Below, in pieces: positions 5,571-26,147 of a stretch of DNA of 64,000 nt (positions are counted from its first letter, which is position 1; every line of letters starts with the position of its first letter). The stretch covers positions 1 through 64,000 of IMG/VR virus record IMGVR_UViG_3300024284_000007; one strand, written 5' to 3'. This DNA is from a virus (taxonomy: Duplodnaviria > Caudoviricetes). The translations under genes and the position numbers were made by a program. Under the pieces are notes generated by a model, which saw nothing but the letters and a program-made list of their open reading frames with translations, made no database searches and was not told the DNA's origin.

Positions 5571-5726
5571 TTCGAGAGCTGCCTGATCCTGGCGACGATG
5601 GCATGAGCCAATTCGATTTCCTCGATAGGGATGTCATCCTCAGACTCGACCGCCGCGAGCCAGTCAGACAGGTCTTCCGGACCCACAAGCCTTCCGTCCG
5701 GGAAAGTCAGAACGACATCCACGAGG

Positions 5727-12793: not shown

Positions 12794-13417
12794 TTGGACA
12801 GCAACGTGACACTGCCCCCGATCCCCCCGGACATGGAGCATCATCAGCTCTCCGAGGCTGATTTCTGGGGGAAACTCCTGGCAGAAGCAGATACCGATAA
12901 CGGGCGCAATCCCCGGTGGGCAGAACTTCAGCTCTACGCCATCATCGACACCAATCCCGCGCATGCTTCCTACGGGAAGCAGATGTGGCTGCTCTATACC
13001 ACCGGGCATTCCCTGGTCTACCATGCCCTCGACGGCTGCGGGCTGGGCATCATGGCGAAAGGGGAGGAGTTTCCCTATCTCACCATCGAGAGCGTCGATG
13101 ACCTGGTTCCGTGCCCCGACTGCCATCCGGGAACCTGGGAGGAGAGCCGGGAGTACAGCCTGGAGGTAGCCCGGCACACCTCGATCCCCTGCCAGGGCGC
13201 GGGGAAAGTGATCCGCTCCTTGTGCCGCGAGCCCCGCTGCGAGACCTGCAAGCACTTCTCCCACGCGGACCGCGAATGCGGGCGCTGCGGCTGCGGCGAT
13301 TACGTCGCGGAGCAGCCCACCCTGTCCGGTCCGGGCAGGCAGCTGGTGGAGAAAGCACGTCGTCTCGATCCTGAGATCGACAGGGCGGCAACGGAGATGC
13401 TGGTCAGGAGGTTCTGA
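12794..13417 (+). CDS. Hypothetical protein with several CxxC motifs
   Basis: First gene of the rightward operon, coupled to the next gene. Confidence 0.65.
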   Translation: MDSNVTLPPIPPDMEHHQLSEADFWGKLLAEADTDNGRNPRWAELQLYAIIDTNPAHASYGKQMWLLYTTGHSLVYHALDGCGLGIMAKGEEFPYLTIESVDDLVPCPDCHPGTWEESREYSLEVARHTSIPCQGAGKVIRSLCREPRCETCKHFSHADRECGRCGCGDYVAEQPTLSGPGRQLVEKARRLDPEIDRAATEMLVRRF

Positions 13418-14163
13418 TGGGAAACGTCCCGAACATCCTCCTGCGCGGGATCACCGGCTCGGTTGCCTACGGGCTGAACACCCCGGAATCTGACGTGGAC
13501 CGGCAGGGGGTCTTCGCGGTGCCCACGGAGAAACTGCTGGGGCTGCACCCTCCCGCGCAGACCATCGACGGGCATGACCCGGACATCACCTGCCACGACG
13601 CGGGCAAGTTCCTGTCCCTCGCACTCAAGGCGAATCCCACGATCCTGGAGCTGCTGTGGCTCCCGGAAGACCTCTACGAGATCAGGACCCCCCTCGGAGA
13701 TAAGCTCATCGGGATCAGGCAGTGCTTCCTGTCCCGCAAGATGGTCCGCAACGCCTATCTGGGCTACGCGACCCAGCAGTTCAAGCGCCTGGAAAGCCGT
13801 GGCGACGGGACGTTCTCCTCTGATCTCCGCAAGCGCACGGCAAAGCATGCCCGTCATCTCGCCCGGCTGCTGACCCAGGGATGGCAGCTGTATTCCACGG
13901 GGACTTTCTCCGTCCGCCTGGATGACCCGGAGTGGTACCGCCAGTTCGGGGAGGATGTGGCTGCCGGAGACCTCACCCGCGCGAGGGCGCTGATCGCAAG
14001 TACTGAGAACAGCATGGACATGACCACTTCCCCGCTCCCGGAGAAGCCCCATGAGGAGCAGGCGGAAGAATGGCTGAGGAAGGTACGGCAGGTTTACTAT
14101 CATCCCGTCTGCGGCAGATGCGGCACTGCGGGATGCCTCGAAGACAAGGCGCTGGACTGGTGA
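13417..14163 (+). CDS. RlaP/YcgL-type DNA polymerase-beta-superfamily nucleotidyltransferase
   Basis: GSVAYGLNTPESDVDRQGVF, KANPTILELLW, KHARHLARLL. Confidence 0.85.
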   Translation: MGNVPNILLRGITGSVAYGLNTPESDVDRQGVFAVPTEKLLGLHPPAQTIDGHDPDITCHDAGKFLSLALKANPTILELLWLPEDLYEIRTPLGDKLIGIRQCFLSRKMVRNAYLGYATQQFKRLESRGDGTFSSDLRKRTAKHARHLARLLTQGWQLYSTGTFSVRLDDPEWYRQFGEDVAAGDLTRARALIASTENSMDMTTSPLPEKPHEEQAEEWLRKVRQVYYHPVCGRCGTAGCLEDKALDW

Positions 14164-14597
14164 TGACGAAGCTGTGGATTTTCGACGTGGACGGGACGCT
14201 TGCCCTCATGGACGGGCGCAAGCCCTATGACTGGTCCCGGGTCAGCGAGGACAAGCCGAATATCCCGGTGCTGACAGTAGCCGCTGCACTGATCATGGAC
14301 GGGCACGAGCTGGGATTCGTCACCGGGCGGATGGAGCAGTGCCGTGACGATACCCGGGACTGGCTCTCGGATAACATCGACGTGCACTCTCCCTGGCTGG
14401 ACCGGCACCTGAAGCGGCTGTGGATGCGCCCCGACGACGACTACCGCCCCGACGAGATCATCAAGCGGGAACTTTACGAGACTCAGATCGCCCCGCATTA
14501 CGACGTCCAGGGCGTCTTCGATGACCGGGCTAAGGTCGTGAAGGGATGGAGGACCCTGGGGCTTACGTGCTTCCAGGTCGCGGAGGGAGATTTCTGA
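14163..14597 (+). CDS. HAD phosphatase resembling the Pnkp (PseT) 3'-phosphatase domain
   Basis: FDVDGTLA, FVTGR, LWMRP.DDYRPD..IK, VFDDR..VV..WR.LGL.CFQV. Confidence 0.88.
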   Translation: MTKLWIFDVDGTLALMDGRKPYDWSRVSEDKPNIPVLTVAAALIMDGHELGFVTGRMEQCRDDTRDWLSDNIDVHSPWLDRHLKRLWMRPDDDYRPDEIIKRELYETQIAPHYDVQGVFDDRAKVVKGWRTLGLTCFQVAEGDF

Positions 14598-15551: not shown

Positions 15552-16319
15552 ATGTCCATCAAGAGCAAGCTATTCGCGGGAGCGGCAGCACTTGCCCTCG
15601 CGGGTGCCGTCAGCGCGGCTGGCGGTCTCACCGCCAGCGCCGCGACCCCGAGCTGCGGTTCTTTCTGTCCCGACGTCTTCAGCCGGGAGTTCGGCACGCA
15701 CCGCACTCCCAATTACGTGCTGGACGTGAAGCAGCAGGGTGCCCGCGTCGGTCAGCCGATCATCCTGTGGCGGACCAGCAATTCCGACCCCGCCGAGGAC
15801 TTCACGGCTGACTTCAGCGGCACGACGACCGCTGACTTCTACGCCGCCGGGCTGGTGCTGCCGCAGGTCGCGCTGCATTACGGCTGCGTCGCCGGGGTGA
15901 ACTTCCCGAACTGCGGCTTCAACGGCACCGATGACTTCGCCACGGAGATCGAGTACTCGCCGTACGGAGTGGGCTCCGGGCTCTGCGTGGGCCTTGCCAG
16001 CACTGCCGTCTCCGGCGAGGGCGTCACGCTGCAGCCGTGCGGGGTCAGCTCGAAGACCGTCTGGATCGTGGACACCAACGATTCCCCGTCCACAATCGGT
16101 CACGGCTACGTGCCACTGATCAACGGCTCCGACACGAACTTCTCGCACCCGTTCGTGCTCGATTACCCGCACAACAGCTTCCCGACCGATAATCCCCGGG
16201 CGCAGCTGTTCGTGAACAACCTGACCGGGTTCAGCCAGGGCAACCTGCCCCTGGGGACCCCGGTCGGCAACGTGAGGGACAGTCAGCTGTGGGGTGCCGA
16301 CTTCGGCATTCTCCGCTAG
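15552..16319 (+). CDS. Secreted ricin-B/beta-trefoil-like protein
   Basis: Sec signal peptide (MSIKSK...ASA), LDVKQQG..VGQPIILW and LCVG...VTLQPCG....VWI repeats. Confidence 0.6.
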   Translation: MSIKSKLFAGAAALALAGAVSAAGGLTASAATPSCGSFCPDVFSREFGTHRTPNYVLDVKQQGARVGQPIILWRTSNSDPAEDFTADFSGTTTADFYAAGLVLPQVALHYGCVAGVNFPNCGFNGTDDFATEIEYSPYGVGSGLCVGLASTAVSGEGVTLQPCGVSSKTVWIVDTNDSPSTIGHGYVPLINGSDTNFSHPFVLDYPHNSFPTDNPRAQLFVNNLTGFSQGNLPLGTPVGNVRDSQLWGADFGILR

Positions 16320-16327
16320 GACCTGCA

Positions 16328-16360
16328 GGCAGCCCCCGGGAACTCTCCCCGGGGGCTGCC
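16328..16360 (+). terminator. 13-bp hairpin after the lectin gene
   Basis: GGCAGCCCCCGGG/CCCGGGGGCTGCC. Confidence 0.6.
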
Positions 16361-16367
16361 TCACGGT

Positions 16368-16397
16368 TTGACAGTGCCTGGATCATGCATGTATGGT
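16368..16397 (+). promoter_or_regulatory. sigma70-type promoter
   Basis: TTGACA-18-TATGGT. Confidence 0.65.
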
Positions 16398-16426
16398 TCA
16401 GGCACCATCTAATGGAAGGAAACACC

Positions 16427-16723
16427 ATGAAGCTGAAGAACATCCTGCAGGCGCTGGCTCCCGTCGCGGTCGGTGCCGCAATGGCGGTCGGGGTAAACGC
16501 CCTGCCCGCCGCCGCGAGCACCCAGCTCACCGCCACCGTGCAGGCCCCGAACCGGATCCTGATCTCGCACGCCCTGCACCGCAACGAGAAGATCACCGTC
16601 GCGGGCTTCCCGGAGGTGGTCACCAGCGTGCAGAACAACGGCGGCGGCACCGTGGCGTGGCTGCAGGTCGCCCTGCCCTCCACCGCCCGGGTTCTGTCCC
16701 CGGTCGCTGTCACCCTCAGTTAG
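16427..16723 (+). CDS. Small secreted protein
   Basis: Signal peptide MKLKNILQALAPVAVGAAMAVGVNALPAAA. Confidence 0.65.
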   Translation: MKLKNILQALAPVAVGAAMAVGVNALPAAASTQLTATVQAPNRILISHALHRNEKITVAGFPEVVTSVQNNGGGTVAWLQVALPSTARVLSPVAVTLS

Positions 16724-18881: not shown

Positions 18882-18953
18882 GGGGGCGATGCCAACGGTA
18901 CGGTCGCCGGATTCCAACCCCGAGCTGTGAGGGTTCAACTCCTTCCGCCCCTG
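18882..18953 (+). tRNA. tRNA-Trp(CCA), imperfect anticodon stem
   Basis: GGGGGCG/CGCCCCT acceptor, G73, loop TTCCAAC, T-loop TTCAACT. Confidence 0.65.
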
Positions 18954-19070
18954 CGGAGCACCACCTCCTCGGAGGGTAATGTGCATGCGGGACAGGACTG
19001 CAAAGGACCTGTTCCATTAAAAACTGCATTGCTTTGAAACAGGCCGGGAGGTAATCTGCTCCCGGTCCAT

Positions 19071-19779: not shown

Positions 19780-19917
19780 ATGATGATAGGGCATGTCTAC
19801 ATCAATGTCGTCTATGTCTGGGAAGCCTTTGCCATCGTGGCTGGGATACCTGCGGGGGTACTCCTCTACGCCATCAGGCGCAAGCGCCGGAAGCAGATCG
19901 GCGATTTATCATGGTGA
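19780..19917 (+). CDS. Single-TM microprotein with in-frame TTA two codons before the stop
   Basis: MMIGHVYINVVYVWEAFAIVAGIPAGVLLYAIRRKRRKQIGD-L(TTA)-SW*. Confidence 0.55.
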   Translation: MMIGHVYINVVYVWEAFAIVAGIPAGVLLYAIRRKRRKQIGDLSW

Positions 19918-20065
19918 CGTTCGTCATCATCGCAGCATTGAGTATCGCATTCATCCTCGTCATGTGGGGGATCGGGCGCAACCGAGACCGAGGAAGACGG
20001 TAATCCGCAGGTTCATCGAATGGATGAAGCTTTCTAAGCGGGACTACCGAGCCCGTGTTAAACTC

Positions 20066-20137
20066 CGGCTTATCGCGTAAGGGTGAGCGCGCCTGTCTCG
20101 GGGACAGGCAGACCAAGTTCGAGTCTTGGTAAGCCGA
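20066..20137 (+). tRNA. tRNA-Pro(CGG)
   Basis: C1-G72, A73, CCTGT-CTCGGGG-ACAGG. Confidence 0.85.
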
Positions 20138-20140
20138 CGA

Positions 20141-20211
20141 GAAGAGAGATGGGGGTTCGAATCCTCCCCTGCCTCATTGAGGCAGGTAGCTTAAGCGGCA
20201 GAGCGCTCTTC
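20141..20211 (+). tRNA. Circularly permuted tRNA gene (3' half precedes 5' half); identity unclear
   Basis: GAAGAG-AGAT-GGGGG TTCGAAT CCTCC-CCTGCCTC-att-GAGGCAGG-TA-GCTT AAGCGGCA GAGC-G-CTCTTC; all four stems pair. Confidence 0.75.
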
Positions 20212-20217
20212 GGTAAT

Positions 20218-20288
20218 CCGGATGTAGTGAAATGGCATCACGCCGTGCCTGGGACGCGGTAGCGGAGGTCCGATTCCTCCCATCTGGA
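20218..20288 (+). tRNA. tRNA-Pro(TGG)
   Basis: CCGGATG/CATCTGG, CCGTG-CCTGGGA-CGCGG. Confidence 0.8.
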
Positions 20289-20450
20289 CGAGGGTTTGCT
20301 GGACGGCATGACCCTACTATGATGCGCATGAAATGATCGGTGCCCGGGAAGAGGACAAGGCCGAACCCGTGCACAGGCTGCGGATGCTGCGCCGTCCCGG
20401 CAGTCCATCTTGAGGAACAGTGATCCCGTATTCGCGTACGGGATCACCTA

Positions 20451-20524
20451 GGTCACTTAGCTCAGCTGGCAAGAGCGCCCGGTTGAAGCCCGGGAGGTCT
20501 TCTGTTCGATTCAGAAAGTGATCA
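20451..20524 (+). tRNA. tRNA-Phe(GAA)
   Basis: Canonical cloverleaf. Confidence 0.92.
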
Positions 20525-20543
20525 CGGCACTATCCCTCTTCAT

Positions 20544-20615
20544 GCGGGTATGGTCTAATGGCTATGACCTCAGCCTTCCAAGCTGATGGTGCGAGTTCGA
20601 TTCTCGCTACCCGTT
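20544..20615 (+). tRNA. tRNA-Gly(TCC)
   Basis: Canonical, U73. Confidence 0.92.
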
Positions 20616-20768
20616 CGCAGTAAGAAAGGATTGCCGTGAAATTCTCACGATGCAAGACTTGCAAGAGGCTGATATCCCGGAAAACCGCCCAGCGCTATTC
20701 CGGGATATGCGGTAAATGCTTCAGGAAAAGTATCTCTTCTCTCGCGAGAAAAATGATTGGTTGACTAT

Positions 20769-20840
20769 CAGGCTGTAGTTCAGCGGGAAGAACGTCGGCT
20801 CGGGGAGCCGGAGGTCGCAGGTTCGAGCCCTGCCAGCTTG
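20769..20840 (+). tRNA. tRNA-Pro-type gene with a 6-nt anticodon loop (TCGGGA)
   Basis: CAGGCTG/CAGCTTG, A73, TCGGC/GCCGG stem. Confidence 0.65.
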
Positions 20841-21023
20841 ACGTGAGAACATGCGTGCACTGCAAGCGCAGCCGCTTCCGGCGGCTGATGGTCCGGTCTA
20901 GCCTGTCCGGGAGCAAGTGGCGCTGCAGGAACGTGCAGGCTTGCGCCAGGTACATAACAAGGAAAAAATAGCAATCCGAGGAGATCATCATGCGAAAGCG
21001 GAACCAGCCCCGAAAGCCTTAAT

Positions 21024-21095
21024 GCTCCGGTAGCTCAGTGGCAGAGCGGCTGGCTCTTAACCAGCGCGTCGCGAGTCCGATTCTCGCTCGGAGTA
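21024..21095 (+). tRNA. tRNA-Lys(CTT)
   Basis: GCTGG-CTCTTAA-CCAGC. Confidence 0.92.
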
Positions 21096-21207
21096 CGAAG
21101 GAAGAATGATGGCTGTATGCCCTAACTGCGGCGGTACCAAGAAACCCGGCAAGACCTGCCCGAGATGCGGAGCAAATCATGAGTAAACCGGACCTGCTTA
21201 AAGGCAG

Positions 21208-26074: not shown

Positions 26075-26147
26075 GGCGACTAAGCTCACTGGTGTGAGCG
26101 GCACCCTCATAAAGTGCACGAGGTGGGTCCGATTCCCGCAGTCGCTA
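26075..26147 (+). tRNA. tRNA-Met/Ile2(CAT), elongator type
   Basis: GCACC-CTCATAA-AGTGC. Confidence 0.85.

Follow-up and report, generated by a model that had tools for sequence, protein, structure and literature searches.

Introduction

YrlA RNAs (Y RNA-like A) are Y RNAs with a likeness to tRNAs, and Rsr/Ro60 binds them in Salmonella, in M. smegmatis and in 22 phages (Chen et al., 2014, PMC4201824; for the structure see Wang et al., 2018, bioRxiv 10.1101/312249). Next to Ro60 they were reported for 254 bacteria and the 22 phages, in a screen in which matches overlapping tandem tRNA genes were dropped and only those lying at most 4 kb from Ro60 were reported (Chen et al., 2014, PMC4201824). 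It was shown that the heads of these RNAs fold like a tRNA, and the authors likened them to circularly permuted tRNAs with closed acceptor loops; the nucleotides of both the D stem and the T stem show conservation and were proposed as the site for a yet-unidentified factor (10.1101/312249). The YrlA RNA of M. smegmatis, which has a 7-bp acceptor stem, is a substrate of RNase P in vitro and is found in vivo as two halves with CCA added (PMC4201824). Since 2014 no job has been assigned to the tRNA-like head, which has been assumed to act only as a module tethered to Ro60.

Two further systems are close to the locus described here. Circularly permuted tRNA genes are present in a crenarchaeon as well as in the red alga Cyanidioschyzon merolae. 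The genes of the alga were described by Soma et al. (2007), as cited in 10.1101/312249, where mascRNA from MALAT1 is likewise cited as a tRNA mimic that is released by the tRNA-processing enzymes.

The window analyzed here is a stretch of 64,000 nucleotides of DNA from a soil phage. It belongs to a viral record of IMG/VR with a length of 87,379 bp and a completeness of 71%. An earlier, sequence-only reading of the window had taken positions 20141–20211 for a circularly permuted tRNA gene in a phage tRNA array. We consider it probable that this element is a stand-alone, handle-less copy of the YrlA-type tRNA-like domain, i.e., a non-decoding tRNA mimic that fills one slot of the tRNA array.

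The Element and Its Place in the tRNA Array

Positions 20141–20211 of the window contain a complete cloverleaf in permuted order, located between tRNA-Pro(CGG) (20066–20137, + strand; ARAGORN; Rfam tRNA model, 52.1 bits) and tRNA-Pro(UGG) (20218–20288, + strand; ARAGORN; Rfam tRNA model, 53.3 bits). The element starts 3 nt after the first of these tRNAs, behind the spacer CGA (20138–20140, + strand), and ends 6 nt before the second, ahead of the spacer GGUAAU (GGTAAT in the DNA; 20212–20217, + strand, from sequence reading). The same CGA follows a tRNA-Pro ahead of a sister element in another contig, G001. Neither ARAGORN nor Rfam gives a tRNA-model match to the element itself.

All parts of the element lie on the + strand. 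The 5' strand of its closing helix, GAAGAG (20141–20146), occupies the place of the 3' strand of an anticodon stem and pairs over all six positions with CUCUUC (CTCTTC in the DNA; 20206–20211), which is the 3' strand of this helix. It is followed by the variable region AGAU (AGAT in the DNA; 20147–20150), the last U of which is the partner of A15 and is invariant in the three alignments A1, A2 and A3, and by the T arm GGGGG/TTCGAAT/CCTCC (20151–20167), as placed by the fold and by the Rfam YrlA alignment. Next comes an acceptor-like hairpin (20168–20186) of 8 bp with the triloop AUU, made up of CCTGCCTC (20168–20175), ATT (20176–20178) and GAGGCAGG (20179–20186); as this hairpin is closed by AUU, the element has no free 3' end. 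The equivalents of U8 and A9 (TA, 20187–20188), which are invariant in alignment A1, lead into the D arm GCTT/AAGCGGCA/GAGC (20189–20204; fold and Rfam YrlA alignment) containing A14, A15, G18 and G19, and the G at 20205 is, from sequence reading, the equivalent of G26.

The four helices of the element are fully paired, i.e., the acceptor helix with 8/8, the closing helix at the place of the anticodon stem with 6/6, the T stem with 5/5 (one G-U) and the D stem with 4/4 pairs (one G-U), and the 8-bp acceptor helix stacks on the 5-bp T stem. Moreover, the residues that usually make the tertiary contacts of a tRNA are present: U8, A9, A14, A15 with U48, G18 and G19, U54, U55 and C56, A58, and G26 with A44. 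The minimum free energy (MFE) fold of 20139–20217 is exactly the permuted cloverleaf with −31 kcal/mol, at a z-score against shuffled sequences that is modest (only −1.98). The parsing given in the sequence-only reading is matched base for base on re-reading, and its statements on the stems (acceptor 8/8, anticodon stem 6/6, all four stems pairing) and on the permuted topology, with the 3' half ahead of the 5' half and four stems formed, agree with the pairing and with the MFE fold.

Two tRNAs of the array, tRNA-Trp(CCA) at 18882–18954 and a tRNA with a CAU anticodon at 26075–26147, were missed by ARAGORN with default settings and were recovered by Rfam (23.8 and 43.8 bits, respectively) or by relaxed ARAGORN. 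With these two counted the tRNAs of the array cover all 20 amino acids, so that there is no missing identity for the element to fill. An intrinsic terminator was also considered for the hairpin and rejected, as no U run follows it and no terminator-like site was called there.

Relationship to the Head of the YrlA RNAs

The Rfam model of YrlA (RF02553) matches the element at 20148–20204 with model positions 28–81 of 114, i.e., with the head only, at 26.7 bits (E 0.0014 in a 501-nt search, E-value scan), which is far below the gathering score of 69. This is the sole YrlA match in the 64-kb window, and the adjacent tRNA pairs of the array give none. The topology is therefore not seen here for the first time in a phage, as might have appeared from the sequence-only reading, which knew of no bacteriophage example: the tRNA-like domain of YrlA has the same topology and is published for 22 phages (PMC4201824).

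The likeness to YrlA extends over the order of the parts, with a variable region, a T arm with a UUCGA loop, an acceptor stem closed by a loop, UA, a D arm with GG, and the two ends of the RNA placed in a helix replacing the anticodon arm, and the A15:U48 pair is present in the element as well. The head of RF02553, in which the T arm is followed by the loop-closed acceptor stem and then by the D arm, is found in the element. However, the handle, i.e., the long stem of 5' and 3' end that carries the Ro60-binding site, is missing: model positions 1–27 and 82–114 are unmatched, and tRNAs are located at distances of 3 and 6 nt. The closing helix of the element is a perfect helix of only 6 bp, whereas YrlA has a kinked stem with a …CUAAA/CUACG tail. 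Moreover, Ro60 is encoded approximately 58 kb from the element rather than at most 4 kb away, and the element is set between two tRNAs. It accordingly lacks three defining features of a Y RNA, namely the Ro-binding stem, a score above the Rfam threshold and the linkage to Ro60, yet judged by its sequence it is clearly homologous to the YrlA head.

This relationship is supported by direct comparisons. The halves of the element align to the head of Y unit 6 of the same genome with a score of 34 and 70% identity, including the common GAGAAGAG, and the element aligns to the sister element L112a with a score of 37 and 74% identity, while none of the 34 tRNAs in the window reaches a score above 18 with its halves. 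That the head of Y unit 6 is closer to the element than any tRNA of the array speaks against the element being a local tRNA that was recently rearranged. For a covariance model, R2, 20 modules were used, all of them taken from other contigs, leaving this genome out. It gives the element 68.7 bits (E ~1e-17), compared to at most 27.7 bits for the best tRNA-tRNA junction of the window, so that the match exceeds chance, in a comparison for which the training sequences had been retrieved with a pattern taken from the T loop and the D arm of the element. The Y heads of this genome score 67 and 63.9 bits with the same model.

Ro60, Y-RNA-Like Units and the Missing Handle

The genome encodes Ro60 with TROVE and vWA_Ro60 domains at 78291–79922 of the record (G000); used as a single-protein query, Ro60 gave one locus only. 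Ahead of this gene and outside the window, six tandem Y-RNA-like units are located on the minus strand (79995–80705 of the record, corresponding to 15995–16705 of the excerpt L009). Each of the six begins with GGGUCGGA...GGUUAUC, and five of them have the exact 5' strand GGUCGGA-N8-GGUUAUC. The same head, consisting of T arm, looped acceptor and D arm, is enclosed by three of the six units. Two head-bearing units reach 34.1 and 32.3 bits with the Rfam YrlA model, which is below the gathering score; at the gathering threshold Rfam reports nothing for the Ro60 region, and the Y units appear at the E-value threshold only. The handle motif GGUCGGA-N8-GGUUAUC is present in five copies upstream of Ro60, and zero copies were found in the 64-kb window with up to two mismatches allowed. 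The element is without the stem that docks to Ro60, and it is predicted not to bind the Ro60 of the phage.

A related arrangement is present in a cultured phage. Streptomyces phage Gilson (NC_048742.1) encodes two unannotated Y RNAs at 66872–66943 and 68070–68141 that have tRNA-like heads and a GGGUCGGAU...GGUUAUC handle, and these are located at the end of the tRNA array directly upstream of the phage Ro60 gene (~68.9–70.4 kb). Since the handle motif and the Ro60 arrangement of the window's phage match those of Gilson, its host is presumably actinobacterial and probably Streptomyces-like. In the cultured Streptomyces phages Daubenski, Gilson and Mildred21 no handle-less copies were found at the threshold used, and only handle-bearing Y RNAs beside Ro60 were seen.

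Heads of the YrlA type also occur in a genome in which no Ro60 gene was detected. The jumbo phage G003 (IMGVR_UViG_3300045988_174371; 360,643 bp, direct terminal repeats, 100% complete) has at least three YrlA-like modules with longer outer stems in its tRNA array (~356.8–360.1 kb), and neither a protein search nor a Pfam search of the complete genome revealed a TROVE/Ro60 homologue. The presence of modules without any Ro60 gene supports the idea that the heads do not need Ro60.

Handle-Less Elements in Other tRNA Arrays

The sequence-only reading had suggested searching for the same permutation with compensatory changes in related phages, and such elements were found in other contigs. With a degenerate pattern that covers the T loop, the gap and the D arm, viral contigs yielded 118 stretches and metagenomes yielded 16; most of these are plain tRNA-tRNA junctions, and approximately 20 are looped-acceptor modules without an overlapping tRNA. 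Scores of covariance models alone cannot tell such modules from tandem identical tRNAs, which reach up to 66 bits, so that an overlay with ARAGORN calls is needed. In 21 modules the acceptor hairpin is 95% paired, with seven of its eight pairs changed on both sides, and the T stem is 100% paired. Most of the modules are classical, i.e., they show a 5' strand of the GGUUAYYUC type, then a small hairpin and the head, followed by a CUAAA/CUACG tail, together with an outer stem that is long, and they are often located beside Ro60.

Five further elements without a handle were identified. They are located in tRNA arrays on four other contigs of phage or metagenome origin, several of them 2–4 nt from a tRNA. 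Two are encoded on the minus strand of L112: one at 1290–1363, directly after a tRNA-Pro(UGG) and the same CGA spacer, and one at 1594–1667, 3 nt after a tRNA-Val and 4 nt before a tRNA-Ala. The others lie in L096 (5624–5695), 3 nt before a tRNA-Phe and with an identical sequence in L160, in L151 (9710–9782), 2–3 nt before a tRNA-Ser, and in L155 (1305–1377), at the end of the array. Together with the element of the window, the two of L112 and those of L096, L151 and L155 all have a YrlA-type head, a closing helix of 5–6 bp, no handle and a slot in a tRNA array. We refer to them provisionally as handle-less tRNA mimics of phage tRNA arrays, a working group and not a published family.

In the alignment of these six elements 96% of the cells pair, and all six pairs of the closing stem as well as seven of the eight acceptor pairs change on both sides; 0/500 shuffles reach the observed values and no slid register comes close. 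These figures are optimistic because of the way the set was selected, as it is small (six elements from five contigs), was partly picked by eye for a short closing stem and was retrieved throughout with the pattern derived from the element.

Between G001, the contig with both L112 elements, and the phage of the window no common protein was found at E 1e-3, yet in blastn the end of the tRNA-Pro of G001, the CGA spacer and the element align at 72% over 104 nt. A common tRNA-Pro/CGA/element junction in the absence of common proteins argues against simple vertical inheritance, and the unit seems to travel with fragments of the array. With the 2-kb neighbourhood as the query, megablast and blastn yielded no relative among cultured phages and only matches to individual tRNAs; blastn of the 71-nt element alone gave no match, and an exact 25-nt motif is absent from the viral contigs. 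Relatives found via a neighbouring lysozyme-like protein were without tRNA arrays.

A description of the handle-less, array-embedded form was not found in the searchable literature. For the head, both topology and family are already known, and the handle-less form in tRNA arrays appears to be a variant for which no describing paper was found.

A Closed tRNA Mimic as the Proposed Product

If the element is a stand-alone YrlA head as proposed, its formation and mode of action might be as follows. The array would be transcribed on the + strand as a precursor; co-transcription is inferred because no promoter- or terminator-like site is present on the + strand within 19904–21140. Among the public sequencing runs, none with RNA is listed as containing the sequence. 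The 3' maturation of tRNA-Pro(CGG) would create the 5' end of the element, and cleavage by RNase P at the 5' end of tRNA-Pro(UGG) would create its 3' end within 20212–20217, so that both cuts at the neighbours would release an RNA of approximately 75–80 nt. Release by processing of the flanking tRNAs had been suggested by the sequence-only reading and is judged a reasonable prediction. The RNA is expected to fold into a tRNA-like L in which the T-loop/D-loop elbow is intact, AUU seals the acceptor helix of 8 bp and an open-ended 6-bp helix takes the place of the anticodon arm; computation and covariation show this L as the predicted fold. An anticodon loop is absent and, as long as the RNA is closed, so is a CCA end, so that the element cannot decode or be charged. 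Most likely, a tRNA-binding factor would take the element for a tRNA at its elbow, T arm or D arm, and the RNA might thereby act as decoy, sponge or adaptor. In that case the YrlA head would be able to function without Ro60. The sequence-only reading had named a pre-nicked decoy or a two-piece tRNA as further options, and either may still apply.

In this respect the element resembles mascRNA, which is also a small non-decoding RNA with a tRNA-like elbow that is cut out by tRNA-maturation enzymes, a step that is predicted for the element. However, mascRNA has the normal 5'-to-3' order and a free acceptor end, whereas the element is permuted and sealed.

Two genes for RNA-related enzymes are located upstream in the window. 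An RlaP-family nucleotidyltransferase gene is found at 13417–14163 on the + strand (Pfam PF10127, 7.3e-23; PHROG 'nucleotidyltransferase'), and a gene with a polynucleotide kinase/phosphatase (PNKP) phosphatase domain at 14070–14597 on the same strand (Pfam PF25109, 2.3e-47; PHROG 'polynucleotide kinase'). As called, both ORFs overlap by 94 nt, and the PNKP ORF matches the phosphatase domain only, with no kinase domain seen. Ro60 with the six Y-RNA-like genes, RlaP and the PNKP phosphatase suggest a toolkit for RNA repair, surveillance or translation. RlaP and PNKP are taken here as genomic context, and no link to the element is claimed.

Alternative Readings of the Element

Instead of staying closed, the RNA could be opened. 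RNase P would cut within AUU, on the 5' side of the acceptor strand, and after trimming of the upstream piece and addition of CCA to it, a two-piece, nicked tRNA body without an anticodon would result. This body could either be charged or be a bait for enzymes acting on the 3' ends of tRNAs. Such a product is unlikely, although it has a precedent in the YrlA RNA of M. smegmatis with its RNase P cleavage in vitro and its CCA-bearing halves in vivo. With this RNA the element shares the probable actinobacterial setting, as indicated by the handle motif and the Ro60 arrangement also seen in Gilson, and an acceptor helix of at least 7 bp, the feature that makes M. smegmatis YrlA a substrate of RNase P and of the CCA-adding enzyme; in the element 8 bp stack on a T stem of 5 bp, and 7–9 bp are seen in the sister elements. 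However, with a loop of just 3 nt the element offers RNase P hardly any leader or trailer, its cleavage is putative, and in the case of M. smegmatis YrlA it is the stem through which Rsr binds. The sister elements moreover vary in the length of the loop (3–7 nt) and in the −1:73 pair (G-C, C-G or U/C mismatch), which indicates that no synthetase identity is conserved, and most YrlA RNAs are thought to stay closed (10.1101/312249).

The element itself carries a G-1:C73 pair. Pairs of this kind are typical of tRNA-His. That the opened, CCA-tailed and anticodon-less body is aminoacylated and provides the phage with a charged, non-decoding tRNA-like molecule is a remote prospect; if true, the two-piece body might be a bait for host toxins or defence enzymes acting at tRNA 3' ends, or an amino-acid donor outside of the ribosome.

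A functionless and harmless remnant, i.e., a Y-RNA head copied into the array without its handle or a tandem tRNA pair that is left without its outer halves, is quite improbable. Arrays of tRNA genes are prone to recombination and mosaic, and the tRNA-Pro/CGA/element junction is common to an otherwise unrelated contig. Furthermore, identical tandem copies would pass on complementary strands without any selection; a tandem pair of identical tRNAs lacking the outer halves also starts with such strands, so that intact helices in one copy are no proof of selection. However, random decay of the stems, which the sequence-only reading had named as the mark of a deletion remnant, is not seen, and no helix and no tertiary-contact residue of the element has decayed. 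The independent handle-less copies keep a closing stem of 5–6 bp by compensatory changes, and the element resembles no tRNA of the array. A diverged strain, represented by a variant contig of run X6 from a third study, shows zero differences in 20134–20212, a single one in the 3' spacer, at 20213, and another in tRNA-Pro(UGG), whereas the nearby spacer at 20334–20407 differs by at least 15 substitutions and 8 indels. In this comparison the element is as conserved as its tRNA neighbour.

For a genuine circularly permuted tRNA gene, the free ends would have to be ligated to an anticodon loop via a circular intermediate and the acceptor loop opened afterwards, to yield a decoding tRNA. The order of 3' half, linker and 5' half with four intact stems and the nearby genes for RlaP and a PNKP phosphatase domain fit this reading, which is nevertheless hardly credible. 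The joined flanks, GGUAAU and (C)GA, would form a loop of 8–9 nt on a 6-bp stem or of 10–11 nt on a 5-bp stem, without U33, and neither the length nor the sequence of these flanks is retained in the sister elements. An anticodon loop of 7 nt can thus not be rebuilt from the flanks, and the joining of the ends, as considered in the earlier reading, is not supported. A bulge-helix-bulge motif would require a further helix next to the closing stem, for which the adjoining tRNAs leave no room. Ligation by the RlaP and Pnk-like genes had been suggested from their position, and both are indeed located approximately 6 kb upstream; RlaP, however, is by Pfam and PHROG a Pol-beta-type nucleotidyltransferase and not a ligase, and no RtcB or Rnl2-type ligase domains were found in the 87-kb record, which is 71% complete. 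In a search for the T4 Rnl1 family the control matched nothing anywhere. Moreover, tRNAs for all 20 amino acids are already in the array, and the homologous head in the Y units of the same genome runs into a Y-RNA handle and not into an anticodon loop. The element thus shares with the permuted tRNA genes of C. merolae that the 3' half precedes the 5' half and that the acceptor stem is first a closed loop, but the algal genes contain a bulge-helix-bulge motif, are circularised by a ligase together with a splicing endonuclease and yield a decoding tRNA that has the normal 7-nt anticodon loop, none of which is available or indicated for the element.

An assembly or chimera artefact, which has to be considered as the record is a metagenome-assembled viral contig, can be practically discounted, since a contig of run X3 from a different study spans 20014–20289 with zero differences and the variant of the third study has the same element, so that misassembly, a concern of the sequence-only reading, does not apply and the element is real DNA.

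Implications

As a stand-alone YrlA-type head, the element would bear on a module that has been regarded as an appendage of Ro60. That a conserved head recurs by itself in the tRNA arrays of phages, with the Ro60-docking stem missing, points to an autonomous activity. With its 71 nt the element could serve as a minimal bait for finding the long-sought partner of the YrlA head. There are also consequences for annotation, as the handle-less form is systematically invisible: tRNA finders skip these elements, and YrlA screens discard matches that overlap tandem tRNAs or lie distant from Ro60.

Further Observations on the tRNA Arrays

In three cases the 3' ends of different tRNA-Pro genes are each followed by a CGA spacer and a handle-less element starting with GA (window, 20130–20146; L112, ~1355–1372 on the minus strand; X6 contig). 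The acceptor 3' strands of these tRNA-Pro are UAAGCCG in the window, CACCCCG in L112 and probably GGUCCCG in the X6 contig, and the junction of tRNA-Pro and element may move as a unit.

In L148, two adjacent tRNA-shaped sequences that are not called by ARAGORN are located at ~900–1000 on the minus strand, one of which has the unusual loop UAAAGAA at the place of the anticodon loop. Finally, directly upstream of the handle-less element of L096 (~5585–5620, + strand), a T-arm-like hairpin composed of GCCGG, UUUUAAU and CCGGC is followed by a 6-bp hairpin with a GUAA cap, and these two hairpins may represent a second, degenerate head.
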